Origin: Macrostomum lignano
Taxonomy: Eukaryota
DNA: 64,000 nt
Assembly (NCBI GenBank): GCA_002269645.1
Contig: NIVC01001090.1
Coordinates: forward strand, 1-64,000
Reading direction: 5' to 3'
Shown: one piece after another, positions 4,843 to 60,345 of the stretch
Layout of the letters: each line of letters starts with the position of its first letter
Numbering within the stretch: position 1 is the first letter of the stretch
Program-made: the position numbers and the translations under genes
Notes under the pieces: model-generated
Database searches by the model: none
Seen by the model: only the letters and a program-made list of their open reading frames with translations
What the model was told of the DNA's origin: nothing

Positions 4843-5251
<409 letters not shown>

Positions 5252-24435: not shown

Positions 24436-24587
24436 GTAAGCCGTCTGCCAGATCTGTGTAGCTAGAGAGTAGTTTGGCATAACTCTAGTAATTGTATCAA
24501 GCAGAGTTTTCTGAAGACTTATTGAGCAGTGTAGCTATTAACATGTTCTGACCTCTTGCACCATTAAATCTGGGTAGAAGGCTATGG

Positions 24588-28223: not shown

Positions 28224-29345
28224 ATGAGAACAAAGAATAACTTAATATCGCTAGCTGGCGCAGCAGCTGTCTTACTGACTGTAGCATACCTCGTTCGGCG
28301 CAGAAATTTCGCTGATTCTGACACACTGCCAGTTCTGAGCGATGTGCAGTTGATCAAAAACTGTCCCGCCTACAACGAGCTCCGCAGCGTCGACTTCACG
28401 AACCCCAGCCTGCGGCACCGGCTGTGTCAGGAGACGCCGGCCTATCATTTAGTCAGGGGCAAGTTTCTCCTGTGCGAGCTGAACAGGAACTTACCGCAGC
28501 AGATGTACACCATTGTCAGACAAGGGTCTCCTGTGGCCAATGTGACCCGAGCGATGGGCGGCGGCCGAATGCCGATATTTACCTTCGGCGCGGAGGACTT
28601 CATTTCTGGGGAGATGCTAAAAAAGAACGCCTGGGAAACTGGCGAAATTCGGACGATGCTCAACCTGTTAAAGCAGTTTCCGACAGACTCGGTAACGTTC
28701 CTTGACGTCGGCAGCAACGTCGGCATCTACAGCCTGCAGGCCAGAGAGCTCGGGTATCCCGTAGTGGCCATCGATGCAAACATTCGTGCATTGGCCAGGT
28801 TGCAAATGTCAGCGAAGAGGCTGGATTTGCTTGATGACAAACTGAAGCTCTTCTGGGGCTTCATCAGCGACGACGTGGCGGTCAAGCGAATCACTTGGAA
28901 CGCTGACGATTTTGGTTGCCACGCCGGAAGCGGCTCGGGTGCAGCGGCTGGCTGGAGACAGAAGGTTACGACAGCAATTGAGGACACTATTCCCGTGATG
29001 ACGGTCAGGGCGGACGAGCTTCGAGAACACATCAGCACCAAGAATGTGATCATCAAGATGGATATCGAGTCCGGTGAGCACCTGTTCATGAAGACTGGCG
29101 AAAAGCTGTTTAGAGAGCTCAACATCATGGCGCTGCAGATGGAGTTCTGGCGGAAGCTCACGGAGCCGCCGCAAGCGTCGAAATATTACAACTTTGTGAC
29201 TCACTTCATGACTTCCAGGAACTTCTCTCTGCTGTCCATGAGGACCTTCCAAGTGCAGAAAATCACCACATTTGGTGAATGGGACGGAATATGGATTAGA
29301 AACGACTTTTTGCCACGAGTTAAGAAAGAGATTCAGATGATTTAG
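28224..29345 (+). CDS. FkbM-family (Methyltransf_21-like) SAM-dependent methyltransferase with N-terminal signal-anchor, intronless, 373 aa
   Basis: TFLDVGSNVGIYSL (motif I), VVAIDAN, VIIKMDIESGE (KxDxEG-type motif); hydrophobic LISLAGAAAVLLTVAYLV followed by RRR. Confidence 0.85.
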   Translation: MRTKNNLISLAGAAAVLLTVAYLVRRRNFADSDTLPVLSDVQLIKNCPAYNELRSVDFTNPSLRHRLCQETPAYHLVRGKFLLCELNRNLPQQMYTIVRQGSPVANVTRAMGGGRMPIFTFGAEDFISGEMLKKNAWETGEIRTMLNLLKQFPTDSVTFLDVGSNVGIYSLQARELGYPVVAIDANIRALARLQMSAKRLDLLDDKLKLFWGFISDDVAVKRITWNADDFGCHAGSGSGAAAGWRQKVTTAIEDTIPVMTVRADELREHISTKNVIIKMDIESGEHLFMKTGEKLFRELNIMALQMEFWRKLTEPPQASKYYNFVTHFMTSRNFSLLSMRTFQVQKITTFGEWDGIWIRNDFLPRVKKEIQMI

Positions 29346-35855: not shown

Positions 35856-36297
35856 GCCAGATAAAGAATCCAGCTTATGTGCGGGCCAGATGAGAGTGGA
35901 AAGGAGAAGGAATAGACTATTAGAAGAGAGGAGAGGCGAGAGGGGGATAAGAGAAAACATGGAAGATAAGAGGAGAGACAAGTGGTGAGGAGAGAGCAGA
36001 GAAGAAGGGAGGAAGAAGCGAGAGGAGGGGAGAAAGGAGGGAGAGGAAAGAGTAAATGTGAGAAGAGGGGAGAGATGAGACAGAGGATCGATGAGAGGAG
36101 AGTAAAGAAGAGTGAGAAGAGAGTAGAGATGAGAGAGCAGAAAGAAGATGACAGCGGGTCAAGAGGAGAGGAGAGATTAGAGAGGAGAGAGTAGAAAGGA
36201 TAGAGAAGAGAGGAGATTAGAGGGGAGAGGAGTGAGAAGAGAAGAGATAGAGATAAGAGAGGGGTGTAAGAAGAGGGGAGAAAGGAGAGATGAGATT
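35856..36297. repeat. Dispersed repeat copy with long purine-rich tract
   Basis: GCCAGATAAAGAATCC...GCGGGCCAGATGAGAG, then an AG-rich tract. Confidence 0.65.
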
Positions 36298-36425
36298 AGT
36301 AGTAATAGAAAATTACGTCCATACCACATTTTTCAATTGCAAAACACGTAATAAGGTACCCGTCAGAAATTTTATTACGCACATACCTTATTTTTCTATT
36401 AAAAATCAAGTAGTAAGGTACCGGA

Positions 36426-36569
36426 CCAAATGGTAGAGTATTCTACAGGAATTTCAACTACACGGCACAGTACCCACAAAGAATTCAAAAGAAGAAAAGA
36501 TCTCAATTTCGATCAACCAAGCAACTTGTCCAAAAAGATACCGAACCAAATGGTAGGGTATTCTACAGG
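36426..36569. repeat. 120-bp tandem repeat whose second unit is the insertion target; the remainder resumes at 47864-47960
   Basis: Unit 1 GTATTCTACAGGAATTTCAACTACAC...; unit 2 reads GTATTCTACAGG | element | TACAGGAATTCCAACTACAC... Confidence 0.9.
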
Positions 36570-36639
36570 ACTACTAAGGGCCGGCAGATCCGGGCGTTTT
36601 TGGAGGTGGGGTGGGTGTCAACCCACCTCGCTTCTCATT

Positions 36640-37020
36640 GGCGCGCGCGCCGCAGGCGCGTGGCGCCAAGCGCCAATCAGGCGCCCATGCCGCAGGCGCA
36701 CTGCACCCTCCCGATATGTGCACCCTCCCGAGCCGCAGGCGACCCTCCCGATATGTATGCCGCAGGCGCCCATGCCGCAGGGGTACCCTCCCGACATGTA
36801 TGCGCACTCCCGATATGTACCCCGATATGTATGCCCTCCCTCCAGAGCAGCAGGCGCCCATGCCGCAGGCGCTCCACTCTCCCAAACCGCAGGCACTCGA
36901 GTGTACACTCTCCCAAACCGCAGGCATCCGAGTGTACACTCTCCCATGCCGCAGGCACCCCGAGTGTACACTCTCCTCAGTACACTCTCCCCAGTACACT
37001 CTCCCGATATGTATGCATAC
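36640..37020. repeat. Subterminal repeat array (CGCAGGCGCCCATGCCGCAGG, CTCCCGATATGT, palindrome GAGTGTACACTC); mirrored at 47413-47793
   Basis: Read directly. Confidence 0.85.
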
Positions 37021-37840
37021 ACAGATATGTAGTCAATGATATTAGGCTAGTGAAAACTACTTATAGTAGGTGAAATTGTGTATATTTACATAAAAATAGT
37101 AGGCAAAACATATTGGTAGGTGTAAATAATGGTGCATAATGCATATTAAAATGTACATATTGATGCATATGAGCAGCAAAAAACACACCATGTAGGTGCA
37201 TATTATATTGACAGAAATAGACAAAGCAGGTACATATCGCATTATTAGTGTAGTAGGCGCTAATAAAACATAGGCGGAAATACACACAGTATAATGCAGG
37301 TGCATACATACACAAAATGTAGGTGCAAATTGAGTATAATACAGGAAAATTACATAGCATATAATGTAGGCAGATTTTAAACATTTTGCATATTAACCCG
37401 CAGGCACAAATTTCAATGCATAGGATAAAATACACACACTGGAAGTTAAGTATAATACAACATATGCATGCAAAATTAAGCATATAATGTAGGTGCAAAG
37501 TAAAATATCCAGCCCAGGATATTCGAGACACGCCCCCAGAGCCAGGGCCGGGGATCCCAATGTACAGTGCGGGCAGAGTAACATAGAGAAATTCAATTCC
37601 TCCCCAGGGCCGGGGGATCCCAATGTACAGTGCGGGCAGAGAGGAGTAACAGAGACCGCCCCAATGCACAGTGGAGGTAGCAGACCGCATACAAAGAGAA
37701 TTCTCCCCAGGGGAGCTTCCAAATAGGTTTTATTATCTCAAGTGCCGCGCAGACAGGGAAAATCACGTACAGGGAGAAAAAACCGCAAACCCCAGTAAAC
37801 CTCCAGCCGCTCCTCAGTGTTGTTTCATGCCGCCTCCTCC

Positions 37841-38524
37841 TCAAGGGTCTCGAATCAGTAGTCGGCCGACTGCAATGGGGAAATTAAAACAATTAATGTA
37901 GAAAGAATATATGCTTTGTATATGATAAGACGAATTGTGTATACAGTGTAATATCTTACCATAGGTGGGGGCGGCAGAGGCAGAGACACCGGGGGAGGCA
38001 GCACCAGAGTCGGCAGCGGCAGCAGTGGCGGCAGAGGCAGAGACACCAGAGTCGGCAGCAGGGGCGGCAGAGGCAGAGACACCGGGGGAGGCCGCACCAG
38101 AGTCGGCAGCGGCAGCAGGGGCGGCAGAGGCTGAGACACCAGAGTCGGCAGCGGCAGAGTCGGCATCGGCGGCAGAGGTGGCAGGGGCGGCAGCGGCAGA
38201 GGCACCAGAGTCGGCAGCGGCGGCGTTCACACCCCCTCCGATAGTCAGCGGTGGGAGGTCGAAAATCTCAGACCCGGTGTCGCTATCGTAGCTATTACCC
38301 CACGGGATGTCGAAAATCTCAGATCCCGGGTCGCTATCGTAGGTAATAGCCCACAAAGCCCAAGATAAGGCTATATCAGCACCCCAATTTTCAGGATAGT
38401 CAAGTCCGCCGTTTTCTATGCCTATGGGGATTATATGTTCGGGTATTTCACCGTCGAGGGAGGCTAATTCTTCAGATGGGCGGTTTTTATCCCAGAGGGT
38501 GGATAGAGCTCGGCGGCGGGACAT
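37841..38524 (-). CDS. Unknown protein, 227 aa, acidic N-half and Ala-rich repeats (left-arm copy)
   Basis: ATG start, upstream TATATAAC, possible in-frame 90-nt intron; no family recognised. Confidence 0.55.
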   Translation of the reverse strand: MSRRRALSTLWDKNRPSEELASLDGEIPEHIIPIGIENGGLDYPENWGADIALSWALWAITYDSDPGSEIFDIPWGNSYDSDTGSEIFDLPPLTIGGGVNAAAADSGASAAAAPATSAADADSAAADSGVSASAAPAAAADSGAASPGVSASAAPAADSGVSASAATAAAADSGAASPGVSASAAPTYGKILHCIHNSSYHIQSIYSFYINCFNFPIAVGRLLIRDP

Positions 38525-38636
38525 GTTGGAATCAGCAGACTATAGTATCAGGGCTAGGATTAGGGTTTGGCTCTCTAGAGGCTGGCTAGATTAGTTATAT
38601 AGGGAGCCCCGCCGGGTGGCGCGAGCCAATAGGGAA

Positions 38637-39185
38637 CTACCAGCGCTGACTCTCGTCAAACAGATTTTCCCAGGGCGGGAATTGGTAGGGTTTGAGACCC
38701 ACAACCTGGAGAACATCCTGGAGATTTTCTTCCTCCTCCTCAGTCCTGGCTACCAGAGAGGTATCGGTCCTGGCGCGCTTGGCTGGCGGCGGGGCCTTGG
38801 GTTTGAAGAGCTTGCCCAAACGGGCGGCAAACATCCGGCGCCACAGTTCCGGCGTGAATTCAATTGTGTAGCGCCAATTGAACTTTGGATCCCGATTAAG
38901 CCAATTGCGCCGCAAACGAATCCTCCCCTGTGAAGCTTCTGCCGCCTTGAAGCTGCCCAACACGACTCTCTTGTCCACGTGAAGACGTGCCGCAGCCTCC
39001 AGGTCAGGGCGTGCAGCTTCGAGCTTCTTCCACTCGACCTCGCTTAAATAGATTGCTGGGAAGCCGTCCTTCCACACTCCAGCTTCGTCGGTGTAGAGCC
39101 GACGGATTTCAATTAAGTCATGCTCCGTTTCAAATGTGGGCTTCCGCGCCACAAAGTTTTCGTATAGAGCGATAGAAGAAGACAT
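38637..39185 (-). CDS. Tandem PC4-like ssDNA-binding/coactivator protein (left-arm copy)
   Basis: IEIRRLYTDEAGVWKDGFPAIYLSEVEWKKL aligns by eye with PC4 [31 protein letters not shown]; second weaker repeat; upstream TATA. Confidence 0.75.
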   Translation of the reverse strand: MSSSIALYENFVARKPTFETEHDLIEIRRLYTDEAGVWKDGFPAIYLSEVEWKKLEAARPDLEAAARLHVDKRVVLGSFKAAEASQGRIRLRRNWLNRDPKFNWRYTIEFTPELWRRMFAARLGKLFKPKAPPPAKRARTDTSLVARTEEEEENLQDVLQVVGLKPYQFPPWENLFDESQRW

Positions 39186-39401
39186 GATTAGCAGCAGCAG
39201 CAGAGAGCTCTCCGACAGCCGCGCAGCGCTTTATATACCCCCAGATGGAGGGTGGGAGGGTGTGATTTTGGGGTGATTTTGAGTGATTCTGGTTGGTTTT
39301 TTGGTGATTTGGCCAATAATAGACGAGCTAAGCAGGTTTTTAGTATATATTCGGACCCCTAGAACAGGGGTAGAGAGATAATCCTTCTCTCTGTATGCAA
39401 A

Positions 39402-39462
39402 ATGGCTAAACGCAGCGCAGCATCGACTACTTTCCCAGCTGACAAGAGGCAACGTCTTTATG
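39402..39462 (+). CDS. Possible first exon of the polB transcription unit (mirror copy 44971-45031, minus strand)
   Basis: AAAATGGCT start, MAKRSAASTTFPADKRQRLY, GTAAGT donor; phase 1 does not join directly to the phase-0 acceptor at 40556. Confidence 0.35.
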
Positions 39463-39599
39463 GTAAGTTTTAATTAATTTCTATCCGGTTGTATATCAGT
39501 CTAGACGGGTTTTGAGTTGCTGCAGCAGGGAGCTTCTATGAATTGGCAGGGGCAGGAGCAAGAGAGGCGCGATAGAGAGTTGATAAGAGCAGACTAGAC

Positions 39600-40490
39600 A
39601 GGCGGGGGCTAACAAAGAGTTGAGGGGTTTACCGCTGTGACAGCTTCAGGCGCATGCGGGCTATAGAATTCAGAGTGCTGCGACAGGGAGCTTACGAGTT
39701 TGAGTAGGGAGGGGGCGCAAACAAAGAGCAGGCAGGATGCGGCTAGGGTTAAAAAATTGCAGAGAATTTCAGCAGGAGGGTCTACGCGCGAGGGATTATG
39801 AGCCAGGCGGGATAAAAAATGGTGGGCGCTCTGACAGCTGCAGGAGCATGCGGGAATTCAGAGTGCAGCAGCAGGGCATGCGAGTTTGAGTAGAGAGGGG
39901 GCGCAAACAAAGAGCAGGCCGGATAACAGCTGCGGGCTGGGGTTAAAAAAATTGCAGAGCATTTCAACAGGAGGGCCTGAGCGCAAGGGGTTATGCGTGA
40001 GCGCAAACAATGAGCCAGGCCAGATAAAAAATGGTGGGCGCTCTGACAGCTGCAGGAGCATGCGGGAATTCAGAGTGCTGCGACAGGGAGCTTACGAGTT
40101 TGAGTAGGGAGGGTGCGCAAACAAAGAACCAGGCAGGATGCGGGCTAGGGTTAAAAAATTGCAGAGCGTTTCAGCAGCAGGGCTTGCTTGCGAGGGGTAG
40201 CGCAAACAAAGAGCCAGGCAGGATGCGGCTAGGGTTAAAAAAATTGCAGAGCGTTTCAGCAGCAGGGCTTGTGCGGGAGGAGTAGCGCAAACAATGAGCC
40301 AGGCCGGATGCGGCTAGGGTTAAAAAATTGCAGATGCGTCTCGGCAGGGGGGCATGCGTGCGAGGGGTTATGGGGGAGCGCTAACAAAGAGCCAGGCGGG
40401 ATGCGGCTGGGGTTAAAAAAATTGCAGAGCGTGTCGGTGGGAGGGCCTGAGCGCAAGGGGGGGGGGAGCGTGAACAATGAGTCGGTTGGA
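39600..40490. repeat. Degenerate repeats with core GCGGCTAGGGTTAAAAAATTGCAGAG (mirror 43943-44833), probably intronic
   Basis: Variable A-run length breaks all frames. Confidence 0.8.
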
Positions 40491-40556
40491 GTCTGATCCT
40501 GGGGTGCCACGAATTGACAGATTCTTCTGGTTTTTTATCTCCTTGTGTTTTTTCAG

Positions 40557-41243
40557 ACGCGTTTGTCCCGCCTGCCCAACCTGAATTTGTTACCGGACCG
40601 GGTGAGTTATCCAGCCCCCCTATTCCCCAGGCAGACCCGGGCTGACTCACACTCCCCCTTCATTCCCCCTACAGGTTTTACGGCCCGGCTGGATAATCAG
40701 CGCGACCTGCCCAAGTTTAGGGCCAAGGGTGTGGAATATGTGGTAAAGTTGGATGGTACTAGCGACTTACGCGAGACATTTGCCAGTTTGCTCGAAGTAT
40801 TCAAGCAGGATTTGGCTGGTGATGAATTTATGGCCGCGAAATTCGAGAGTGATAATATGCTCAAAGCAGCCCACACTCCCCCGGTGCGTGCGGCCCGCAT
40901 GACAGCAGAGTTGTTGTTTAAGCACATTGACAAGATTGTGCAGTCAGACGCAAGCGTACTGTCGAGCAACTTTTCTATCCGGTTGCTAAAGGCCTGGGTG
41001 CCTCGAGGTGGATGTGCTCTCGAGAACAAGCATCTAGAAGAGAGGCACGCTTTTTCAAAGCACTATGTCCGCATCACCAACACGGACAAGAGGTGCCTGC
41101 TGCGAGCTCTGGTCGTGGCCTGCGCCTATCTGCAATTTGTGGCCAAGCGCATCACCGAGGATGTGTGGCGCAGGATCAAGGCCAATTCACCCAAGCAGAC
41201 TAAGCTGGTGACTGAGCTGCAAGTCGAAGCAGGCCTCTACACG
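40557..41243 (+). pseudogene. polB: pPolB N-terminal exon, duplicated left-arm copy without its downstream acceptor
   Basis: Mirror of 43190-43876; donor GTAAGT at 41244, then junction into antisense polB. Confidence 0.8.
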
Positions 41244-41260
41244 GTAAGTTGTGCACTAAT

Positions 41261-42971
41261 AGCGCTCAGTCTCCTCATAAATCGCCCGCATTGGCTGGTT
41301 CTTGAGCGGGTGCAGCACGTCGCCGTTGGGGAAGCACTTGGGACAGCCATGGAAGAAGCAGCCATGAAACTGCAGCACTGTCCTGGTCTCCGGGTCAAAG
41401 CCATCCACCTTACGGCCCATGGCGAAAGCCTCGCCGCCAGAATCGGCTGTCCGCAACCGGCCGCCAAACTCGGTTGCATTCAAATGTGCCAGCCAGCAGC
41501 GCGCCTTGTGCGACTGTACATCGGACCGGCGGGAAATCACCCCAAGAGTGTTGGGCTCCATAAACTTGGTGGTGAAAACAGCCATAGCCAAGCCCGCAAT
41601 GGTGTTGGATTGGACAAATGCGTCCAGTCCGCAAATGTCCTTAATCAGGCGGGTGTACTTTAGACAGCCTTCCCGCAAAATTAACGTGTCCTGCAGGCAA
41701 TAGTCCAGGTACTCCTTATTGAAATTAAACACCTGTCCCTCCTGCTTGGCCAGCCAGTCAGCGATGGAGTCGTGCTGCTTATTCTTCTTCCCGCCGTACA
41801 TATCAATTGAGCAGTAGGGACCTACGTACCCCCAGTTTTGTGGCTGATTGAACACGTGCGGGAAATCTCCTTTGGTCAGTTGGGTGCCCAAACCAAGCGC
41901 CTTTGGGAATTGCGCCAGACCAATAGGGATAAAGTTGAGGCTGTCCTTGAACGTGATCTTGTCGCACTTCATGTACATTAGGCGGCTGTTCTGGAAGATC
42001 ACCTGCGGCTTCTTCTTGGCCAGTCCGTTGAGTAGGGCGCCGAGCAGGAGGAATGCGTCATACGCAGAGCCATTGTGCGCAATTGCAATTGCCCCCTGCT
42101 TGAACACGCTAGTCAGCCAGCAGTAAAAGGCATCGATAGAGTGCAGTCCAACGGATACAAACTCTCGCATCCCACAGGCACAGTCATTGTGGGAGACACA
42201 GCTCGTAAAATCCAGCGCCAGATTGCGTCCCGCAATGCAATTGGCTGAGCTGTGCAACCCCCGCACACGCTGCAGCGGGGCCTGGGGAAGAGTTTGGGAC
42301 ACGCCTCGCAGGAGGTGGCAGCCGTAACCAAGTGTACCCGGTGCTGCTTGGTCCACGTACGTCTCGAAATCATAGTAAACGTACGGGGCGCTAGACTCTT
42401 TGGCTTTGGGCGGGGTGACAAAGCACTCGTGGGTGGCCGTTTCGTCGTACTGCTTGCAGACTGGACACTTGGCGTAACCACACTGATGCTCGGGGGGCTG
42501 GCCTACTTTCAGTTCTTCTAGATAGCCACACGTGCCGCAAACGTGGACTGAATCACAGCGCGATCTGCCCGCCTTATTCTTGCGCTTGTGATTCTCTAGG
42601 CACTGAGCATTATAGCAATTTAGCCCGCAATCATGGCATCTTACATATGCACGGTTGGCTTTGCAGTTGGAGCCCGGAGTCTTGCATGTACTGCAGGCAT
42701 CAGCGCACTTGTGCTTCTCATAATTGCAATCGAAGGCCATCTCGCACTTGGCGCAGTAGTGATCGGAGCCGAAAAACGCAGGCAGCTTGGTGACCACATT
42801 AAAGTGCTGCTCGACCAGGTGCAGGTGCAGAATCTCGGTGCCAGGCAGGTTGAATATGCACGTGTTGGCCTCCTCTGCCCTGTACACTCGTACACCAAAA
42901 TCGTGGCCTGGATGCAGACGGTTCAGGGCCCGTATCGCCTCGGGCAGAACATCCACCCCAAAAGGACCGGC
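41261..42971 (-). pseudogene. polB: Polinton protein-primed PolB: Zn-finger region, exonuclease and VSR-like insert, truncated before the polymerase motifs
   Basis: ExoI YVYYDFET, ExoII AHNGSAYD, FKDSLNFIP, KGDFPH, ExoIII YCLQD, KVDGFD...FHGCFFHGCPKC; the stop comes from left-arm sequence. Confidence 0.93.
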
Positions 42972-43189
42972 CTGCGAGACGATTTGATGAGTCTGTGTGG
43001 AGGCAAAATATTTCTTTTAGTATTCCTTATCGTAAAAATTCTTATCAGAAAATATAGCTTTTAGTATTCCTTATCGTAAAAATTCTTTTAGTAATCCATG
43101 AAAATACTAGAAACCAGAAACGAAATTCTTATCAGAAAATAAATCTTTTGGTATTCCCTGATACAGTGGAAAATTAGTGCACAACTTAC

Positions 43190-43876
43190 CGTGTAGAGGC
43201 CTGCTTCGACTTGCAGCTCAGTCACCAGCTTAGTCTGCTTGGGTGAATTGGCCTTGATCCTGCGCCACACATCCTCGGTGATGCGCTTGGCCACAAATTG
43301 CAGATAGGCGCAGGCCACGACCAGAGCTCGCAGCAGGCACCTCTTGTCCGTGTTGGTGATGCGGACATAGTGCTTTGAAAAAGCGTGCCTCTCTTCTAGA
43401 TGCTTGTTCTCGAGAGCACATCCACCTCGAGGCACCCAGGCCTTTAGCAACCGGATAGAAAAGTTGCTCGACAGTACGCTTGCGTCTGACTGCACAATCT
43501 TGTCAATGTGCTTAAACAACAACTCTGCTGTCATGCGGGCCGCACGCACCGGGGGAGTGTGGGCTGCTTTGAGCATATTATCACTCTCGAATTTCGCGGC
43601 CATAAATTCATCACCAGCCAAATCCTGCTTGAATACTTCGAGCAAACTGGCAAATGTCTCGCGTAAGTCGCTAGTACCATCCAACTTTACCACATATTCC
43701 ACACCCTTGGCCCTAAACTTGGGCAGGTCGCGCTGATTATCCAGCCGGGCCGTAAAACCTGTAGGGGGAATGAAGGGGGAGTGTGAGTCAGCCCGGGTCT
43801 GCCTGGGGAATAGGGGGGCTGGATAACTCACCCGGTCCGGTAACAAATTCAGGTTGGGCAGGCGGGACAAACGCGT
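43190..43876 (-). CDS. polB: pPolB N-terminal exon, spliced via a 218-nt intron (43189-42972) to the exonuclease exon
   Basis: PRGG...ITNTDKRCLLRALVVA pattern typical upstream of Polinton PolB; GTAAGT donor and CAG acceptor give the in-frame join EAGLYT-AGPFGVD (alternative acceptor 21 nt earlier). Confidence 0.82.
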
Positions 43877-45247
43877 CTGAAAAAACACAAGGAGATAAAA
43901 AACCAGAAGAATCTGTCAATTCGTGGCACCCCAGGATCAGACTCCAACCGACTCATTGTTCACGCTCCCCCCCCCCTTGCGCTCAGGCCCTCCCACCGAC
44001 ACGCTCTGCAATTTTTTTAACCCCAGCCGCATCCCGCCTGGCTCTTTGTTAGCGCTCCCCCATAACCCCTCGCACGCATGCCCCCCTGCCGAGACGCATC
44101 TGCAATTTTTTAACCCTAGCCGCATCCGGCCTGGCTCATTGTTTGCGCTACTCCTCCCGCACAAGCCCTGCTGCTGAAACGCTCTGCAATTTTTTTAACC
44201 CTAGCCGCATCCTGCCTGGCTCTTTGTTTGCGCTACCCCTCGCAAGCAAGCCCTGCTGCTGAAACGCTCTGCAATTTTTTAACCCTAGCCCGCATCCTGC
44301 CTGGTTCTTTGTTTGCGCACCCTCCCTACTCAAACTCGTAAGCTCCCTGTCGCAGCACTCTGAATTCCCGCATGCTCCTGCAGCTGTCAGAGCGCCCACC
44401 ATTTTTTATCTGGCCTGGCTCATTGTTTGCGCTCACGCATAACCCCTTGCGCTCAGGCCCTCCTGTTGAAATGCTCTGCAATTTTTTTAACCCCAGCCCG
44501 CAGCTGTTATCCGGCCTGCTCTTTGTTTGCGCCCCCTCTCTACTCAAACTCGCATGCCCTGCTGCTGCACTCTGAATTCCCGCATGCTCCTGCAGCTGTC
44601 AGAGCGCCCACCATTTTTTATCCCGCCTGGCTCATAATCCCTCGCGCGTAGACCCTCCTGCTGAAATTCTCTGCAATTTTTTAACCCTAGCCGCATCCTG
44701 CCTGCTCTTTGTTTGCGCCCCCTCCCTACTCAAACTCGTAAGCTCCCTGTCGCAGCACTCTGAATTCTATAGCCCGCATGCGCCTGAAGCTGTCACAGCG
44801 GTAAACCCCTCAACTCTTTGTTAGCCCCCGCCTGTCTAGTCTGCTCTTATCAACTCTCTATCGCGCCTCTCTTGCTCCTGCCCCTGCCAATTCATAGAAG
44901 CTCCCTGCTGCAGCAACTCAAAACCCGTCTAGACTGATATACAACCGGATAGAAATTAATTAAAACTTACCATAAAGACGTTGCCTCTTGTCAGCTGGGA
45001 AAGTAGTCGATGCTGCGCTGCGTTTAGCCATTTTGCATACAGAGAGAAGGATTATCTCTCTACCCCTGTTCTAGGGGTCCGAATATATACTAAAAACCTG
45101 CTTAGCTCGTCTATTATTGGCCAAATCACCAAAAAACCAACCAGAATCACTCAAAATCACCCCAAAATCACACCCTCCCACCCTCCATCTGGGGGTATAT
45201 AAAGCGCTGCGCGGCTGTCGGAGAGCTCTCTGCTGCTGCTGCTAATC

Positions 45248-45796
45248 ATGTCTTCTTCTATCGCTCTATACGAAAACTTTGTGGCGCGGAAGCCCACATT
45301 TGAAACGGAGCATGACTTAATTGAAATCCGTCGGCTCTACACCGACGAAGCTGGAGTGTGGAAGGACGGCTTCCCAGCAATCTATTTAAGCGAGGTCGAG
45401 TGGAAGAAGCTCGAAGCTGCACGCCCTGACCTGGAGGCTGCGGCACGTCTTCACGTGGACAAGAGAGTCGTGTTGGGCAGCTTCAAGGCGGCAGAAGCTT
45501 CACAGGGGAGGATTCGTTTGCGGCGCAATTGGCTTAATCGGGATCCAAAGTTCAATTGGCGCTACACAATTGAATTCACGCCGGAACTGTGGCGCCGGAT
45601 GTTTGCCGCCCGTTTGGGCAAGCTCTTCAAACCCAAGGCCCCGCCGCCAGCCAAGCGCGCCAGGACCGATACCTCTCTGGTAGCCAGGACTGAGGAGGAG
45701 GAAGAAAATCTCCAGGATGTTCTCCAGGTTGTGGGTCTCAAACCCTACCAATTCCCGCCCTGGGAAAATCTGTTTGACGAGAGTCAGCGCTGGTAG
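45248..45796 (+). CDS. Tandem PC4-like ssDNA-binding/coactivator protein (right-arm copy)
   Basis: As the left copy; TATATAAA at 45196-45203. Confidence 0.75.
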   Translation: MSSSIALYENFVARKPTFETEHDLIEIRRLYTDEAGVWKDGFPAIYLSEVEWKKLEAARPDLEAAARLHVDKRVVLGSFKAAEASQGRIRLRRNWLNRDPKFNWRYTIEFTPELWRRMFAARLGKLFKPKAPPPAKRARTDTSLVARTEEEEENLQDVLQVVGLKPYQFPPWENLFDESQRW

Positions 45797-45907
45797 TTCC
45801 CTATTGGCTCGCGCCACCCGCGGGGCTCCCTATATAACTAATCTAGCCAGCCTCTAGAGAGCCAAACCCTAATCCTAGCCCTGATACTATAGTCTGCTGA
45901 TTCCAAC

Positions 45908-46591
45908 ATGTCCCGCCGCCGAGCTCTATCCACCCTCTGGGATAAAAACCGCCCATCTGAAGAATTAGCCTCCCTCGACGGTGAAATACCCGAACATATA
46001 ATCCCCATAGGCATAGAAAACGGCGGACTTGACTATCCTGAAAATTGGGGTGCTGATATAGCCTTATCTTGGGCTTTGTGGGCTATTACCTACGATAGCG
46101 ACCCGGGATCTGAGATTTTCGACATCCCGTGGGGTAATAGCTACGATAGCGACACCGGGTCTGAGATTTTCGACCTCCCACCGCTGACTATCGGAGGGGG
46201 TGTGAACGCCGCCGCTGCCGACTCTGGTGCCTCTGCCGCTGCCGCCCCTGCCACCTCTGCCGCCGATGCCGACTCTGCCGCTGCCGACTCTGGTGTCTCA
46301 GCCTCTGCCGCCCCTGCTGCCGCTGCCGACTCTGGTGCGGCCTCCCCCGGTGTCTCTGCCTCTGCCGCCCCTGCTGCCGACTCTGGTGTCTCTGCCTCTG
46401 CCGCCACTGCTGCCGCTGCCGACTCTGGTGCTGCCTCCCCCGGTGTCTCTGCCTCTGCCGCCCCCACCTATGGTAAGATATTACACTGTATACACAATTC
46501 GTCTTATCATATACAAAGCATATATTCTTTCTACATTAATTGTTTTAATTTCCCCATTGCAGTCGGCCGACTACTGATTCGAGACCCTTGA
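45908..46591 (+). CDS. Unknown protein, 227 aa (right-arm copy)
   Basis: TATATAAC at 45831-45838; possible in-frame intron 46473-46562. Confidence 0.55.
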   Translation: MSRRRALSTLWDKNRPSEELASLDGEIPEHIIPIGIENGGLDYPENWGADIALSWALWAITYDSDPGSEIFDIPWGNSYDSDTGSEIFDLPPLTIGGGVNAAAADSGASAAAAPATSAADADSAAADSGVSASAAPAAAADSGAASPGVSASAAPAADSGVSASAATAAAADSGAASPGVSASAAPTYGKILHCIHNSSYHIQSIYSFYINCFNFPIAVGRLLIRDP

Positions 46592-48477
46592 GGAGGAGGC
46601 GGCATGAAACAACACTGAGGAGCGGCTGGAGGTTTACTGGGGTTTGCGGTTTTTTCTCCCTGTACGTGATTTTCCCTGTCTGCGCGGCACTTGAGATAAT
46701 AAAACCTATTTGGAAGCTCCCCTGGGGAGAATTCTCTTTGTATGCGGTCTGCTACCTCCACTGTGCATTGGGGCGGTCTCTGTTACTCCTCTCTGCCCGC
46801 ACTGTACATTGGGATCCCCCGGCCCTGGGGAGGAATTGAATTTCTCTATGTTACTCTGCCCGCACTGTACATTGGGATCCCCCGGCCCTGGCTCTGGGGG
46901 CGTGTCTCGAATATCCTGGGCTGGATATTTTACTTTGCACCTACATTATATGCTTAATTTTGCATGCATATGTTGTATTATACTTAACTTCCAGTGTGTG
47001 TATTTTATCCTATGCATTGAAATTTGTGCCTGCGGGTTAATATGCAAAATGTTTAAAATCTGCCTACATTATATGCTATGTAATTTTCCTGTATTATACT
47101 CAATTTGCACCTACATTTTGTGTATGTATGCACCTGCATTATACTGTGTGTATTTCCGCCTATGTTTTATTAGCGCCTACTACACTAATAATGCGATATG
47201 TACCTGCTTTGTCTATTTCTGTCAATATAATATGCACCTACATGGTGTGTTTTTTGCTGCTCATATGCATCAATATGTACATTTTAATATGCATTATGCA
47301 CCATTATTTACACCTACCAATATGTTTTGCCTACTATTTTTATGTAAATATACACAATTTCACCTACTATAAGTAGTTTTCACTAGCCTAATATCATTGA
47401 CTACATATCTGTGTATGCATACATATCGGGAGAGTGTACTGGGGAGAGTGTACTGAGGAGAGTGTACACTCGGGGTGCCTGCGGCATGGGAGAGTGTACA
47501 CTCGGATGCCTGCGGTTTGGGAGAGTGTACACTCGAGTGCCTGCGGTTTGGGAGAGTGGAGCGCCTGCGGCATGGGCGCCTGCTGCTCTGGAGGGAGGGC
47601 ATACATATCGGGGTACATATCGGGAGTGCGCATACATGTCGGGAGGGTACCCCTGCGGCATGGGCGCCTGCGGCATACATATCGGGAGGGTCGCCTGCGG
47701 CTCGGGAGGGTGCACATATCGGGAGGGTGCAGTGCGCCTGCGGCATGGGCGCCTGATTGGCGCTTGGCGCCACGCGCCTGCGGCGCGCGCGCCAATGAGA
47801 AGCGAGGTGGGTTGACACCCACCCCACCTCCAAAAACGCCCGGATCTGCCGGCCCTTAGTAGTTACAGGAATTCCAACTACACTGCACGGTACCCACAAA
47901 TAATTCAAAAGAAGAAAAGATCCCAAGTCCGATCAACTGACCAACTTGTCCAAAAACGCATTTTCAGTATATTTCTAAACCAAGCGAATCAAAATATTCC
48001 CCGACTCTTCGTCCACGCCCCCCTTAAGTTTAAGGATCTCGGCGACGCACCCGCGGCGGAGCGCGCATGTATACCATTGTAAAGTTTGCCTCTTCTTCTC
48101 GGGTTCTCTAAGATGTTCCTAGAAAAATAAAACCCGCTGCTCCAGAAGAAGCTAGATAGCACCGCAGTACTACCTATCGATTTTTGCCTGAAAATGAACC
48201 TAAAACGTTGCCGTGACTTGGTAGGGTTGCTGCCACCTTGGTGTGCGGACTCGACGCGTCGGCAGAGTTGTCTATCCGTCACCTGAAAGAAAAATAACAA
48301 AGTCGCTCGGAGCAAAGGCAAATCTGAAAAATGTCTCGACAGTCGATCGTCTTAGTAGAATGCTGCTCGAACCTGAAAACCTGAAAACCTGAAATGAGAG
48401 AGGAGAGCTCGGAGGCAGCTCCGGTCGAGCCCAGGCAGGACGACACGATCTGGAGAAAATTGCTCGCAGATGCTCCG

Positions 48478-49730
48478 TATTTATAGCCGAGCGGACCCCC
48501 AAAAGTCACGTGAGTTTCATGCGGTGAGCGCGTGAAACTTCCTTATTTGGGCATTGGAATCATGCGGGCGACGCGTGATCCAAGGCCAACTTCCAAATAA
48601 GGCAACCCTGTCACGCAGCAGTGGCGTGACTCAAGGTCAGTGGCCACGCACAGAGTGCGTGCACAGTCACGTGCTTAGTCTGTGCTAAAAATAGAATCGT
48701 GGGCGGATGAGTCATCCTGTTTACTCCCTCTAGGCAGCCCTTACACTCCGCGCAGGTGATGAGTCATCCTGCAACGCCTCCTCAGCGCGAGTGGGAAGAC
48801 ATTGAGTGTGGCTGCCCGCGCCCGCTCAGGCGATGAGTAATTGGGCAGTAAACACATAGGCCCAGCACAGGGTAACTCTCTCACTAGATCAGGTGGACTG
48901 AGCTACTGTGCAGCGGATCACAGCACTCTTAGGGAAAGCTAGTGAATGCTGCTGAATAACCAGATAGCAGCCAGTCACTACACCATCTTAAAACTATTCG
49001 CAGTCTCGTCCACCCGGAATCTGGCCACACTCTCAATGGACACGGAGCCGTCGGACCACAAGTGGCGGCAGTAGCCAGCACCGTCCAAAGTAGTGCAGCG
49101 GCGGTCGGATGGCAGTCCCCACGCCGTCGCGGGTACCCCCGTCCCGTGTCGTCCGAGTAGATTAACTCCCTCCGCCCGGCACACCGTCCTGATTTCATCA
49201 ATCCGCTCGATTTTATGTCAGTGTGGACTCAATGTGGGGCGGGGGCCGCGGCTCGAGGATGAAGGGGAAAAGTCCAGCTGCGCCCCTCCCCGCCCTCATG
49301 CGCCCAAGAAACCGAAGCCTGCAGCTACGACCAGTTGGGCGACCGGCTGGACTTTCACTTAGCGAGATAGTAATACAATAGAGCACCTGGCCCCACGTGG
49401 GGCGGCCTGCGGACTCTCAACTTAAGGAGACAGTATTACAATAGAGCAGAGCTCGCGTGCGTTGGCCGGAAAGCACCATTATTTTCGCCAAACAAACTTA
49501 TTTAATCAGCCTGCCGAACGGATTTGTTTGTCCATGGGGCGCGGGCGTGGGCCGGAAAGCACCATTATTTTCGCCAGGAACTGCCCAACTTATTTAACAA
49601 GCCTGCGGAACGGATTTGTTTGTCAATGGGCAGCTGTTCCTTCGTTATTCAAGCCCACCCCCCGAAACTGCCACGTGGCACAAAAAGCCAGATGGCGCCC
49701 CTCCCCACCAAATCCTGCTCTATAAAAGAA
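48478..49730. promoter_or_regulatory. Putative divergent promoter region: TATAAATA (minus, 48478-48485), TATAAAAG (plus, 49721-49728), AP-1 motifs, CACGTG boxes, ~86-bp tandem duplication at 49464-49630
   Basis: TGACTCA 48627, TGAGTCA 48708 and 48760; motif matches only. Confidence 0.5.
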
Positions 49731-49821
49731 AGTAGAAAATTCGCTCAAACTGCCAACGAGCCAAGGACAACAGGAAGCAACCCAAGCGTACGGAGACTAA
49801 ACCAACCGCCGCTGGAGAACC

Positions 49822-50995
49822 ATGACCGCCTATCCCGCCGAAACAGTCCTGACGCTGCGCCAACTCACTGACGGAGCAAGACTACACATTGGCGACGAGT
49901 CAACAAACGGCGAGTGCTTCTTCCGATCTGTGACGTGGACTCGGCCGGGGGAGAAGAAACGCTACCCGATCATACTGCAGACGGAGACCCCGCTGGAGCT
50001 GCTGAAAGGGATCAACGAGCGAGGAAACCACCACGCCGAACAATTGACCGCGTATCAGGCCGACCATCGCGAGGAAATCGGACTGAATTTTCTCGGCGAA
50101 GATTTCTGCAAGCCACTGTTCAATCTACTGAGGTGAGTTACCCCCCCCCCCCCCGACAACTTTTCAGGATTCACTAGCCCCTTGGTGTCAGTTAAAATCA
50201 ACACATAAACTCCAATTTAATTCCAGAACTGTGGAACGAACAATCGCACAGGAGCTCGAGGAGAAGCCGGACTCTAAAGCGCTGCTGCGCGTGACGCGAC
50301 AATCCTCACGCGGTATAACGGGTGGGGCCTCCGCGGACTACGCGCCAATGCACTGGATTCCAATCAAGCCAAACTTCAGCTGTCTCGGCTTTCGCACAGA
50401 CCAGGCCACCCACCCGGACGGTCGAGAGGCAGCCCTGAGCGAATTCAAAGGACTGACGGGACGCTACCACCTTTCAATTCAAGTCACGTCGCTATTCTGT
50501 CCACGGACCGGAACCGGCTGGAGGCTCTCTTTCGCTCTACGCTCTATTGTGCTGATGGAGAGCAACCCAAGCCGGCTGGCCGTCTTCGCGGGAGTCCGAC
50601 AACAGCTAGTCAAGAAGAGGGAGCCAGATACAGACGAAAAACCAGAAGCCGGCTCTACAATGGAGAGGAAGCCGCCCAAGCGGCACCAGTCCAGTTCTGA
50701 AGAGGAAGCCGAACCTAGCACAAAGAAGAAGCCACCGACCAAGAAGCCGGCGACCCCTCGCCGTCCTAATGCGCCCAAGAAACCGAAGCCGCCTGCAGCT
50801 ACGCAGAGCAACGACCGGCTGGCCCCAACTGCTGAAGGTTTGCCCTCGGCCAAGGCACTGGTGAGCCCTACCGGGTCAACTATCTCAACGTCAACTGGCG
50901 GAACTCGGGTGGCCTTTAAAGACCTGGCTTACCAACGTCACCTGGCGGCGGCCGCGGAGCAGTCCACGTCCAGCGACTCTGAAGCTGACTGCTGA
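49822..50995 (+). CDS. Putative OB-fold ssDNA-binding protein (T7 gp2.5/large-DNA-virus SSB-like), join(49822..50132,50227..50995), 359 aa
   Basis: GT-AG intron joins the two ORFs in frame; GRYHLSIQVTSLFC...WRLSFALRSIVL resembles the C-terminal strands of viral SSBs; charged Lys/Pro tail. The gene is well supported, the family call is tentative. Confidence 0.6.
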
Positions 50996-51134
50996 ATCCA
51001 AATCCTAAATCTGATATTCAAATTTTTAAACAACGCTTGTCGATAAGAAATACATTGGCCACCCAGGTTCCGCCAGGAAAATTTCTATATTGTGGGTGAC
51101 ATCTCTATTGAGCCTTTGTTTTTTCTTCTTTCAG

Positions 51135-51690
51135 CGCTTGGTGCTAGTCATTTTTGGTGCCGCACTGAAAATCTCTCCTGGAGAAAAGCTTTGCATGCAC
51201 GAGACTGAGATAGCTTTAGCTCGAAAGTCATATTCGTGCAAGGTTTTTAAAGCGAGACCTACAATGTGCAAATTTAAATTTGCGGATTTAACCATTCAGC
51301 TTTATCCCAACGGGAAGCTGACAATTTTTTGCCGCAATATGAATGTGGACGTGGGATCGATTTTACAGTTTGTTAACGAAATTACTATTTACAAACTGGA
51401 TTTCGATTCTGTCCACGTTCAAACTTCTACAATGGTTGGTCAAGTTCAGTTTCCCGCAAGAAACAGCTTCCACTATTTAAAAAGCTGTGTCGGAAACTAT
51501 GAGGACTTTAGGGCAACCTATGATGCAGAACTTTTTCCACAGGCAATCAGTTTAAGACAGTCAAAAACTCCCAGACTTTTTTGCAACGTCTTTCATACTG
51601 GAAAGATTGTCGCAATGGGAGCAAAAAATGAGACCGAAGTAAACCTCTTAACTCGGTCCGTTAATGCATTGCTTGCTATGCTACTGATAG
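51135..51690 (+). CDS. Divergent TATA-box-binding protein (TBP-like); frame stays open to 52064 as sequenced
   Basis: Second repeat YDAELFPQAISLRQSKTPRLFCNVFHTGKIVAMGAK vs TBP [34 protein letters not shown]; first repeat LTIQLYPNGKL; acceptor at 51133-51134, first ATG 51195. Confidence 0.85.
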
Positions 51691-51717
51691 CAGTACTATT
51701 GGCAAAAAAATCCAGCC

Positions 51718-52389
51718 ATGGCCCGGATCTACATTCTGGAGGGGAACCTGGCGGCAGGCAAAACAACGCTGCTAAGAAACCTGGCCCTGAACTCGCGGTT
51801 GGAGAAATGGGAACCACAGATTCTCTGGGCCAAGGAGCCGGTTCAGGCCTTCACCTCACACCCGAAACTGCCGGCAGAAACGAACCCGCTGGAGGAATTC
51901 CACCGAGGATCTCTATCGGCACTCGGTTTTCAAGTCGATGCGAGCCATTGTCTGCTTCAGCGGAACAAGAACATGAGAGAGCTTCTGCTCTCACCGGAGC
52001 CGGATCAACCAGAGTACGACATTCTGGTGATGGAAAGGCTCATGGCGTCGGCTCACGCATTTAACTCGGTTCTAACAGAGGCGGGGCGGCTAACAACGCT
52101 GGAGAAGGCAATCTGCTGCGCACAGGTGGAGACATTGCAGGCGATCAAACCAAGCGAGGCCACCCTGATCTACCTCGACATTGAGCCAAGCCTGGCACTA
52201 GAGCGGATCCGGCAACGCGGCCGAAAAGGAGAATCCGAAGTGACGCTCGACTATCTGAACCGGCTGCACGAAGCAATGGTGTCCTATTTCTGTCTCTATC
52301 GGGCGGTCCACCGAGTGACGGTCGGACCATCTACAACACCAAGCGACGTGGCTCGGCTGGTTGGGCGCATTGTGCGAGGACTAAACTAA
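51718..52389 (+). CDS. Deoxynucleoside kinase (dNK family), 223 aa
   Basis: P-loop LEGNLAAGKTT, EPV, MER motif, lid IYLDIEPSLALERIRQRGRKGE...DYLNRLHE. Confidence 0.92.
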   Translation: MARIYILEGNLAAGKTTLLRNLALNSRLEKWEPQILWAKEPVQAFTSHPKLPAETNPLEEFHRGSLSALGFQVDASHCLLQRNKNMRELLLSPEPDQPEYDILVMERLMASAHAFNSVLTEAGRLTTLEKAICCAQVETLQAIKPSEATLIYLDIEPSLALERIRQRGRKGESEVTLDYLNRLHEAMVSYFCLYRAVHRVTVGPSTTPSDVARLVGRIVRGLN

Positions 52390-53382
52390 CTAATCCAAAT
52401 CCGAATGAAATATATCTAAAACACAGCTTTTGCTGTAAAAATCTTTCCGATCGAGGAAAGAGCCTGAGATCTATACAGTCTCGTGAATTATTTCTACGTC
52501 TTTTGACGTAGACGAGAGACCAAAACAATTACAGTCAGCTAAAGTTAATCATGTAGCTCTCTATTATTAGACATGCCCTCGCGTTTGGTTTCGCGAGTGT
52601 TTTCGCCGATTGCTATTGGAAACAACGTCCCCCTGCTGATTGCAAAAAGCATTCTTCAACACAATTAATTCTATTGGCTGTTGTTGATGCTGCTATTTAC
52701 TTGCCTGCTAGCAGACGGTTTGGTTTTGTCTCTATGTCGCCAATAATTTGAGGCCGTGCCCACCCCGGTGTCTGGTGTAAACTGACGACTGGGTTTTTTC
52801 GACCATTGGCAAGTAGCTCCTTGAGGCTGCATAATGTGGATTTTTCTTTCCACAGCTGGGTGTCTAGGCCGACTCTGGGTCATAGCACCATTCAGGTCCA
52901 CCTGGCCCAGTGCCTTAAATGCAGCCAGACCAGTAAAGGAGCGCTAGGTACTGACCCAATATTCGAGGTCTGCATTCAGACCCAATATTTCGAGAACTGC
53001 GCTTGCATCCATTGGTTGAATTACGGTGTGCATAGGGACGCTCACTAGGAGATGCACCATCACCACCACCACCACCACCTATTTCTGGCTGGCTGGTTGG
53101 CTGCGTCTCCTTGCGTGTTGGCACTCCAGAAATATTTTGGTTGGGTGCGGTGCGGATAAAATAATGAGGGATAAAAAAAAGTCAGCTTAAGTTAATCGTG
53201 TCATCACCCTCTAAAATTATTGAAGACACGCCCTCGTGTTTGGGGTCACGAGTACTGCTACTACTATTTGTAGTAACGTCCCCCTGCTGACAAAAAAAAT
53301 TATTTTTTTAAAGTCTATTTTTATTACTACGCTACTGCCTACACCGTTGGCTAATAAATAAAAATCATTTTCCTAATTCCAG

Positions 53383-54027: not shown

Positions 54028-54549
54028 ACCAGGGGGTCATTGATTCAAGTGGGGTGTGATAAACAAAATATATATATAAATATACATATATCTGTGAGTG
54101 AGGGTGTTGAGGGTGAGGGCATGTGGGGGCATTGGCATGTGGAATATTTCTCAGAACACAGAATTTCCGAAATTTTTATACTTTTAAAAAGGGGGGGGTG
54201 CCCTCGCCCTCATGCCCTCACTCATTTTGAAAATCACTAAAAATAACTGAAAAATGACTAAAAACAGGCGAAAATGGTCTGAAAACAGCGATTTTTTGTG
54301 ATTTTCAAAAATTTTGAAAAAGTGCAATTTTCACGGTTCCAGCTCTGAAACCATGAGAAAAGTTGGATTTACGGGTCAATTTAATGCGATTTCAGGTATA
54401 TACAAAATGAAAGTGTCATCCAATTCAACGATAGTAAATTTTATATATATATAAAATGGCCTTCAGTAAACCATTATTTCTAGGAAACGCTTTAGATATT
54501 CAGTCAGCTATAGACATAATTGACAATTAGGCATAATCGCCATATAAAA

Positions 54550-55299
54550 ATGAATGATAAAAATGAACGCATCTATCCTGTGGTTGAGCTGCATGAAGCA
54601 GATTTGAGGGAGCGGGACTATTTCAATCAGAGAAAGGGTGAAATCAAAGGCAGTATTGAATGCATTACGAAAGATCTTACAATTTATAGCAAAAAGGTAA
54701 AAAAGTACAAACGACAAAGTAGCAGGATAAATTGGATCAACATTGTGACAGGAAATGTAAGTCTCTTGGCTGCTACAGGAATTGGCATAGCAACATCGAT
54801 ACTGACATTGAATCCCTTAGTCATTGGAGTAGTAATCGGGGCAATGAGTGGTTTTGAAGCTGTAAAATCCACGTCGTTGTTTGCAACTGTGAAAATGCAT
54901 TGCCAAAAGCAGAAGGCAAAATACATTTTTCTCAGAGATCTGGCAAATCAATACAGAGAGAGATTGTATACTTACTCCCAAAAAGCAGTTGATGATTATA
55001 GATTAACTCTTGAAGAGGTTCAAGCAGCTGCTGCAATTTATTCAGAATACAGAGAGAAAAGAGACCAATTGTTAGACGCCTGTGTTGCGCCTGAAGAAGT
55101 TAACCGTTCGGAAGTCGTTGATAAAATCCTCAAAGAGAGTAGACTTGGTCATTCAGCGAAGGAAAAAATTAAAAAGGAACTGCTGGAGAAAGATCTGAGA
55201 GAAAAATTGGGTCTAGCTGATAAGCCAAAAGAGTACTCGGCAACACTCAATCTTCAATCAAATGCTCCAAGTGCGCCCCCTATGCTTGAGTCTGTTTAA
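54550..55299 (+). CDS. Polinton-associated predicted membrane protein, 249 aa
   Basis: Basic KKYKR segment, two Gly-rich hydrophobic stretches, then K..DDYRLTLEE helix: the layout of the small TM ORFs common next to invertebrate Polinton polB. Confidence 0.65.
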   Translation: MNDKNERIYPVVELHEADLRERDYFNQRKGEIKGSIECITKDLTIYSKKVKKYKRQSSRINWINIVTGNVSLLAATGIGIATSILTLNPLVIGVVIGAMSGFEAVKSTSLFATVKMHCQKQKAKYIFLRDLANQYRERLYTYSQKAVDDYRLTLEEVQAAAAIYSEYREKRDQLLDACVAPEEVNRSEVVDKILKESRLGHSAKEKIKKELLEKDLREKLGLADKPKEYSATLNLQSNAPSAPPMLESV

Positions 55300-55314
55300 T
55301 TTTTTTTCTTAAAA

Positions 55315-58300: not shown

Positions 58301-58376
58301 ACAAACAATGAGTCCGTTAGATGATAAAATATATTATTTGGATCCTATCAGATCTATTCCTCATCAGCCAATGTAA
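55315..58376 (+). pseudogene. polB: Protein-primed PolB (second clade): one frameshift (~55610) and four in-frame stops (55761, 57579, 57870, 58215)
   Basis: KGGTYI, DNRCFL, REHNHYNGKYRGAACQSCN, YLDKNNLYGEAM (PolA), KLLNNSFYGK (PolB), YSDCDS (PolC), IGKLKDE. Confidence 0.95.
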
Positions 58377-60287: not shown

Positions 60288-60345
60288 CATTAAACCGCGG
60301 GGAAAGAAACGAGGCAAGACAAGGGATGGCGCGAAACGGAACCTC
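60288..60345. repeat. Split direct repeat B2 (58 bp)
   Basis: 57/58 identical to 60619-60676. Confidence 0.92.

Follow-up and report, generated by a model that had tools for sequence, protein, structure and literature searches.

Can a transposable element that has folded back on itself act as a silencer of its own family in an animal, or is such a structure a by-product of the way in which the element replicates? The question is raised by a palindromic Polinton-type element of the flatworm Macrostomum lignano, located at 36570-47863 of a 64,000-nt stretch of DNA (contig NIVC01001090.1, positions 1 to 64,000 of the forward strand, assembly GCA_002269645.1), referred to here as the window. An earlier note had interpreted the palindrome as a source of hairpin RNA that silences its own family in trans, in the manner of maize Mu killer. 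This interpretation is partly supported. As far as its sequence can tell, the locus is built like Mu killer and fits that class in structure only. The element is probably a young, non-autonomous and passive, hairpin-competent copy-back derivative of a minimal Polinton-type family, one of several such derivatives in this genome.

Anatomy of the palindromic element

The element is 11,294 bp long and ends in ACTACT..AGTAGT. Both arms are 4,691 nt long and differ from each other by two single-base indels and no substitution. The palindrome recognised in the earlier note is therefore real, but its extent had been underestimated, since the arms reach 36570 and 47863. It is flanked by target-site duplications (TSDs), and an empty site with one TACAGG was found in 3 of 12 related host-repeat loci examined. 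From the outside inward, each arm contains the terminal repeat, an Ala-rich open reading frame (ORF) and a PC4-like ORF, both pointing outward, a promoter region, and exons 1-3 of polB, pointing inward. The features are the following:

36564..36569 (+): left copy of the 6-bp TSD, TACAGG (flanking sequence)
36570..41260: left arm, 4,691 nt, the duplicated end (self-comparison)
36570..37760: ordinary terminal inverted repeat of the family, about 1.2 kb, terminus ACTACT (aligns with either end of relatives)
37729..37734 (-): AATAAA on the inner border of the terminal repeat, the sole minus-strand AATAAA from 45031 to the left end
37841..38524 (-): Ala-rich ORF, outward, no Pfam family (ORF list, Pfam)
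38637..39185 (-): PC4-like ORF, outward, 182 aa (ORF list), with TATATAAA at 39237-39230
39313..39350 (+): CCAAT (39313-39317) and TATATAT (39344-39350) upstream of polB (sequence)
39402..39462 (+): polB exon 1, left arm, 61 nt, phase 1, GTAAG donor, ATG at 39402 (18/18 relatives)
40557..40601 (+): polB exon 2, left arm (splice signals and phase, borders read by eye)
40675..41243 (+): polB exon 3, left arm, with a donor at 41244 without its acceptor (borders; exon 3/4 splice of the family)
41260..41261: fold-back junction, without microhomology against 6/6 relatives
41261..43172: unique spacer, 1,912 nt (self-comparison)
42992-41261 (-): polB exon 4, in the spacer, frame open to 41256 (PF03175, E 9e-15)
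43138..43143 (+): AATAAA, 35 nt short of the right arm, where the left-arm transcript may end (predicted from sequence)
43173..47863: right arm, running on into the spacer as in relatives (sequence comparison)
45031-44971, 43876-43832 and 43758-43190 (-): polB exons 1-3, right-arm copy
45248-45796 (+): right-arm PC4-like ORF (ORF list)
45908-46591 (+): right-arm Ala-rich ORF (ORF list)
47864..47869 (+): right copy of the TSD, TACAGG (flanking sequence)

The inward polB unit of each arm, which begins with an ATG at 39402 (+) or 45031 (-) and has a TATA-like tract upstream, had already been noticed and is confirmed by the relatives. The length, phase and GTAAG donor of exon 1 are kept in all 18 other family copies examined, and a TATA-like tract also precedes polB in the closest relatives. 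Exons 1-3 join in frame by phase. The polB and PC4-like genes appear to lie head-to-head over a common promoter region, with TATA-like tracts in both directions. The PC4-like label is a lead only, based on Atlas feature matches to PC4 clusters at 0.84-0.85, and a Pfam scan of this ORF gave no match.

On the minus strand, the right arm passes through intron 3 into exon 4 without a break. Exon 4 is cut at the junction, upstream of the polymerase motifs that relatives carry in their 3´ part. Among named proteins, M. lignano polymerases come closest to the spacer ORF (16 of 23 matches, 51-99% identity). In the window, an open frame of 578 aa runs from exon 4 to the junction. That it is open depends on a single homopolymer base near 42257, which is different in the two other palindrome-bearing contigs and in 17 of 18 relatives. 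Furthermore, a 5-nt gap near 42350 is found in all three palindrome contigs and in the closest relative, and is absent from 17 other copies. Because the palindrome contigs and the closest relative have this gap in common, the polB of this lineage was probably already broken, by a frameshift near 42350, before the fold-back. The palindromic element presumably encodes no working polymerase.

The palindrome is inserted in the 120-bp subterminal repeat of another element (36295-36569 and 47864-48000 of the window), the ends of which are found in inverted pairs spaced 2-26 kb apart. The flank at 48078-48983 was considered as part of a helper element and rejected, since it matches both ends of retrotransposon-like ORF blocks; it is a solo long terminal repeat of an abundant retrotransposon.

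Parent family and origin of the fold-back

The palindrome derives from a family of dozens of elements of 8.7-9.8 kb (nine measured) with an intron-containing protein-primed family B polymerase (pPolB), a PC4-like protein, one more ORF and 6-bp TSDs. Terminal repeats measure 0.7-1.35 kb, and TSDs match in 10 of 10 relatives with both ends detected; 8 of 18 are without a detected end. The polB, PC4-like and Ala-rich genes fill the element in the six relatives with ORFs listed, as judged by eye among the ORFs shown. The polymerase is recognised by PF03175 and is truncated in the palindromic copy. No integrase was found among the ORFs and Pfam matches of the palindrome, nor was one recognised by eye in six relatives, not all of whose ORFs were scanned with Pfam. 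Capsid, packaging ATPase and protease genes were likewise not found in the palindrome or in the 8.7-9.8-kb relatives; capsid-like and ATPase-like ORFs sit in a different family of the same genome. Searches of the genome for a helper with the PF00770 and PF04665 profiles gave no matches, and neither blank shows absence: that of PF04665 is a false negative, given the ATPase-like ORF with a P-loop in the capsid-bearing family.

Polintons (Mavericks) are described as elements of 13-25 kb with terminal inverted repeats of 100-1,500 bp and a TSD of 5-8 bp (PMC10748475; PMC5499653). The family studied here shares with them the protein-primed polB, the 6-bp TSD and, in the parents, terminal repeats within that range. 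In contrast, both the parents and the 11.3-kb palindrome are short, polB has spliceosomal introns, no integrase or virion genes were seen, and the arms of the window copy measure 4.7 kb. Among the hallmarks of an autonomous Polinton, the polymerase, terminal repeats and TSD are thus present, whereas integrase, virion genes and length are not. What the earlier note took for a parent Polinton is a minimal integrase-less family, and the parent is best described as a minimal, helper-dependent Polinton-type unit rather than a full Polinton. Its termini, ACTACT..AGTAGT, also differ from the AGTAG start of the capsid-bearing family.

The relatives are mosaic, with left and right repeats 74-100% alike. 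In a search with exon 3, only palindrome copies matched at 100%, the next match being at 93% (best 40 of 67 matches), and no other copy was found with this terminal repeat at 100%. By spacer sequence, the closest relative is 98-100% identical per tile over 41261-43060 and lies about 95 kb from one palindrome copy on the same contig. In the 18 polB relatives examined, palindromic sequence is limited to the terminal repeats. The genome also contains a second polB family, about 61% identical, and locus L037 (C2368 51900-52521) has an extra inverted PC4-promoter region 150 bp past an ordinary polB element, at a contig end.

As shown by comparison with these relatives, the palindrome corresponds to the first 6.6 kb of a parent of about 9-10 kb followed by its first 4.7 kb once more in inverted orientation; this second stretch takes the place of the other terminal repeat and of the 3´ third of polB with its end-of-transcript region. 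With the junction as query, 37 of the 40 matches scored (best 40 of 159 candidates) break off precisely at 41261, and three span it. The three spanning contigs have left flanks alike at 99.8-99.9%, which indicates one insertion; three independent insertions were rejected because all three contigs have this flank. Two of the contigs break off within the element, the window alone continues into the right flank, and one contig differs by 10 substitutions. The Ala-rich ORF of both arms is about 355 nt shorter than that of the closest relative, and this private gap of about 355 nt, being found in both arms, argues that one arm was copied from the other. Microhomology at the junction was sought and rejected, as the longest common word was 5 nt and out of register (6 of 6 relatives). 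Sequencing data were examined for 4 of 24 runs, as contigs without strand; no run offered is recorded as RNA, X17 being presumed DNA and X1, X3 and X6 guessed to be RNA-like. Among the contigs listed for these four sets, X17 included, none bridges 41260/41261; a further 918 pieces lie outside this listing.

In a copy-back genome, one terminus is replaced by the complement of the other and essential genes are lost, and both are found in this element. Such a product could arise during protein-primed strand-displacement replication, in which the polymerase would leave its template at 41261 and copy back along the displaced strand from 43173; alternatively, a full fold-back dimer would have lost part of one arm. 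The fold-back product would then be integrated by an integrase supplied in trans. Copy-back defective viral genomes are similar in that one end is kept, the other is replaced by its complement, and a helper is presumably needed. However, the element of the window is DNA, integrated with a TSD and inherited, and the likeness is structural.

Fold-backs are not restricted to this locus, as five further long-armed palindromes with their own TSDs were found in two other families. Of 14 terminus matches retrieved, three are complete palindromes with long arms. They lack polB, have these same termini and TSDs of their own, and measure 7.25 kb (arms 3.25 kb, 99.9%), 8.57 kb (arms 3.97 kb, 98.7%) and 8.88 kb (nearly perfect, 99.5%). 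The other 11 comprise three more members of the same polB-less family, each retrieved in part, two ordinary polB copies and six short, mixed or unpaired matches. A search with a capsid-like ORF, so named by eye and by Atlas viral clusters at 0.98, gave three contigs with two opposite-strand matches within 13 kb (best 131 of 639 candidates). Both of the inverted pairs fetched are palindromic with 6-bp TSDs, one of 8.5 kb (arms 1.75 kb) and one of 13.1 kb (arms 4.85 kb). Since palindromes recur in other families, one of them without recognised genes, folding back points to a recurrent replication by-product in this genome and away from a dedicated silencer. Strand switching in protein-primed replication would best explain the recurrence.

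Regarding individual loci, the polB-less ACTACT family without recognised genes is represented by L122 (260-7509), L126 (184-8752), L124 (about 270-9151) and L123 (300-3662). The first three are palindromes of 7-9 kb with different TSDs, and a short central segment is oppositely oriented in two of them, recalling flip/flop hairpin ends. The capsid-module palindromes C1584 (127375-135893) and C633 (134497-147606) are AT-rich, with AGTAG termini and major capsid-like, minor capsid-like and ATPase-like ORFs, and no polB or integrase was found in either stretch. The 13-kb palindrome of C633 has inward units in both arms, as does the element of the window. Finally, L128 (2296-9861) has ACTACT-family repeats around a minor-capsid-like ORF of the AGTAG family, which may connect the two systems.

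Several points weigh against a passive copy-back derivative. Template switching usually uses microhomology and the junction has none, so that end-joining may have taken part. Mobility as a palindrome is putative, the element being known from a single insertion site, and an integrase-bearing helper with ACTACT-family termini was not identified. The poly(A) prediction behind its hairpin competence is also weak, a polB-sense AATAAA after the ATG being present in 1 of 9 relatives. The first two of these points would suit an origin in place by abortive gap repair, in which an integrated copy of about 9-10 kb is broken, copied inward from the opposite terminal repeat and closed by end-joining; the closest relative on the same contig as one palindrome copy and the mosaic repeats would suit it too. 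This origin is nevertheless unlikely, because a related palindrome family occurs at several sites with differing TSDs and a common centre, and this demonstrates that palindromes of the kind replicate and insert as a unit. It is very unlikely, in turn, that misassembly or chimeric reads gave an ordinary copy the look of a palindrome. The three contigs may come from the same reads, their right flank is joined in the window only, two of them stop within the element, and X17 has a contig that passes from the arm into intron 3 (96 letters on the shorter side) and no junction contig among those listed. However, the junction offers no homology for an assembler to walk, the flanks are distinct, with a TSD and matching empty sites, and no orphan left half was found, given the lack of another copy with this terminal repeat at 100%. 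The contig with 10 substitutions and the other palindromes with TSDs of their own also oppose an artefact.

Predicted transcripts and the silencer question

The earlier note expected read-through RNA with about 1.8 kb of self-complementary arms. This length is correct for unspliced RNA, with 1,859 nt (39402-41260 with 43173-45031), but 1.17 kb of it is intron, and after splicing 675 nt of exon sequence can pair, with a longest piece of 569 nt. A stem of 675 nt is ample for Dicer. The expectation that convergent transcription would give both sense and antisense polB RNA holds, as the spacer carries exon 4 on the minus strand (PF03175).

The right-arm transcript is predicted to be the likelier hairpin source of the two. 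On the minus strand from 45031 to 37734 there is no AATAAA and one ATTAAA (at 39469), so this transcript could extend through at least 1.79 kb of the left arm, in antisense. With the parental 3´ terminator gone, it would run into the left arm and form a hairpin, with a stem of 675 nt when spliced and up to 1.86 kb when unspliced. In the direction of the left-arm transcript, ATTAAA at 41724 and 42798 is followed by AATAAA at 43138. The left-arm transcript may end there, before the right arm, and consist of sense exons 1-3 and 1.7 kb antisense to exon 4.

Targets in trans were assessed by the perfect 21-mers in common with 16 relatives. The unspliced stem has 6-47% of 21-mers in common with them (median 10%), whereas exon 3 has 8-45% (median 20%) and the spacer 22-89% (median 46%). 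Every relative has at least 116 perfect 21-mers in common with the stem and at least 379 with the spacer, so guides could pair, the shares being mostly low. Since the spacer has more in common with relatives than the stem, its antisense RNA is predicted to be the stronger trans agent. This would fit the association of Mu killer silencing with short antisense transcripts from inside the locus, where the read-through hairpin model is disputed (PMC3440606).

The anatomical parallel drawn with Mu killer holds insofar as one end plus the 5´ part of polB lies in an inverted duplication, while its hairpin component needs refining, and the stem matches most relatives poorly. Both loci are single, are inverted duplications of one end with the 5´ part of the enzyme gene, and have two copies of one terminal repeat. 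In the window, however, the arms have their own promoters, two outward genes and a 1.9-kb spacer, and the family is a protein-primed replicon rather than a cut-and-paste element; the silencer likeness is structural only (Mu killer from PMC3440606). Composite insertions of Ac/Ds are also inverted duplications that arise from the element's own aberrant movement, and an element promoter can drive double-stranded RNA (dsRNA) from them. They form by alternative transposition of two nearby ends, and dsRNA, small interfering RNAs (siRNAs) and heritable repression were measured there (10.1101/2020.01.07.897926). In Caenorhabditis elegans eri-6/7, Polinton sequences make inversions with small-RNA consequences in an animal, but it is a host gene that is inverted between Polinton repeats, and the accessible part of the report describes no anti-Polinton hairpin (10.1101/2024.01.15.575659).

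The contig sets give limited information about expression. An opposite-strand joint that corresponds to the exon 3/exon 4 splice of the family was seen in X3 and X6 but in neither X1 nor X17. With 14 differences over 124 nt, the piece in X6 comes from another copy. Among the contigs listed for the four sets, no exon 1-2 or exon 2-3 splice was found. Two spacer markers of this copy, an allele at 41391 and the gap of 5 nt near 42350, are in none of the four sets; as they are missing from the presumed DNA set too, and contigs drop rare variants, their absence from RNA is uninformative. X1 has an arm-specific piece (40674-40868, 195/195 nt, next relative 177) that starts at the exon 3 border, and X3 has another (37861-37997, 137/137 nt) across the arm-private gap, both at low depth. 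These pieces may be RNA or DNA carry-over. The presence of arm sequence and spliced family polB together in X3 is a weak hint against complete silencing.

The M. lignano lineage has Dicer-1, Dicer-2, four RNA-dependent RNA polymerases (RdRPs) and expanded Argonautes, according to one report (PMC5594548). Another describes ping-pong PIWI-interacting RNAs (piRNAs) that act on transposons, a 22-nt class that is mostly microRNA (miRNA) and a distinct, complex 20-nt class (PMC4604429); the seven of its supplementary files that were searched contain no entry for a Polinton or Maverick. Any hairpin or antisense RNA from the locus would feed the host siRNA and piRNA pools, where its likeliest effect would be the silencing of this locus and of its nearest kin, on top of family-wide control and not in place of it.

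A stronger claim is that the locus works like Mu killer, its hairpin or antisense RNA being diced, amplified by RdRP or ping-pong, and dominantly lowering the whole polB family. The inverted duplication with essentially identical arms, the arm-specific sequence in X1 and X3, the 21-mers that the spacer has in common with all 16 relatives and the RNA interference (RNAi) genes reported for the host (PMC5594548) would agree with it. Nevertheless, spliced family polB occurs in X3 and X6, in X3 beside arm-specific sequence; the stem and exon 3 have few 21-mers in common with relatives; the host 22-nt class is mostly miRNA, with transposon control ascribed to piRNAs (PMC4604429); and palindromes recur whatever their gene content. 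A working silencer of this kind is accordingly improbable. Repression might be exerted by protein instead, as the right arm and spacer could make a polymerase fragment of about 800 aa that poisons replication. KP elements repress P elements by protein, and the 578-aa frame from exon 4 to the junction is open and without polymerase motifs. But this frame hangs on the single homopolymer base near 42257 that differs elsewhere, and the 5-nt gap adjoins it, so the true copy is probably frameshifted; a poison protein is extremely unlikely. A broader proposal also has to be considered, namely that Polinton-type elements in this flatworm are separate modules (polB-only, capsid without polB, and no recognised genes) that throw off inherited copy-back palindromes, and that those with inward promoters (this one and C633) start host silencing of each family, as an animal Mu killer born of protein-primed replication. 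We regard this as quite doubtful. The passive copy-back derivative remains the preferred interpretation.

Neighbouring features and significance

Other features of the window lie outside the palindrome. A virus-like cluster at 49700-52400 comprises a TATA-led small ORF, a TBP-like ORF (PF00352, E 1.5e-7) and a deoxynucleoside kinase (PF01712, E 1.4e-19). An AT-rich Polinton-like remnant at 54500-60400 has polB-like frames with an endonuclease VII-like stretch, a D5-like helicase and a PriCT-2 primase. At 60785-63826, a reverse transcriptase overlaps a tyrosine recombinase frame, which we take to be a DIRS/Ngaro-type retrotransposon. The window also contains a host potassium-channel exon block (5945-6595), an FkbM-like methyltransferase ORF (28068-29345) and a tRNA-like repeat head after a perfect 19-bp tandem array (24548-24830).

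An integrase-less, intron-containing polB family is an unusual Polinton form. A literature search at the level of titles, with most subscription journals and Repbase outside its reach, found no description of such a family or of palindromic Polinton derivatives. The recurrent palindromic derivatives of 7-13 kb with TSDs constitute indirect evidence on Polinton replication, which is otherwise inferred from gene content. It is an open question how animals first come to silence a DNA transposon or endogenous virus that is new to them, and single-locus initiators are best documented in maize. The locus described here is amenable to such tests in a laboratory flatworm that has RNAi and piRNA pathways, and its private markers separate it from its relatives.

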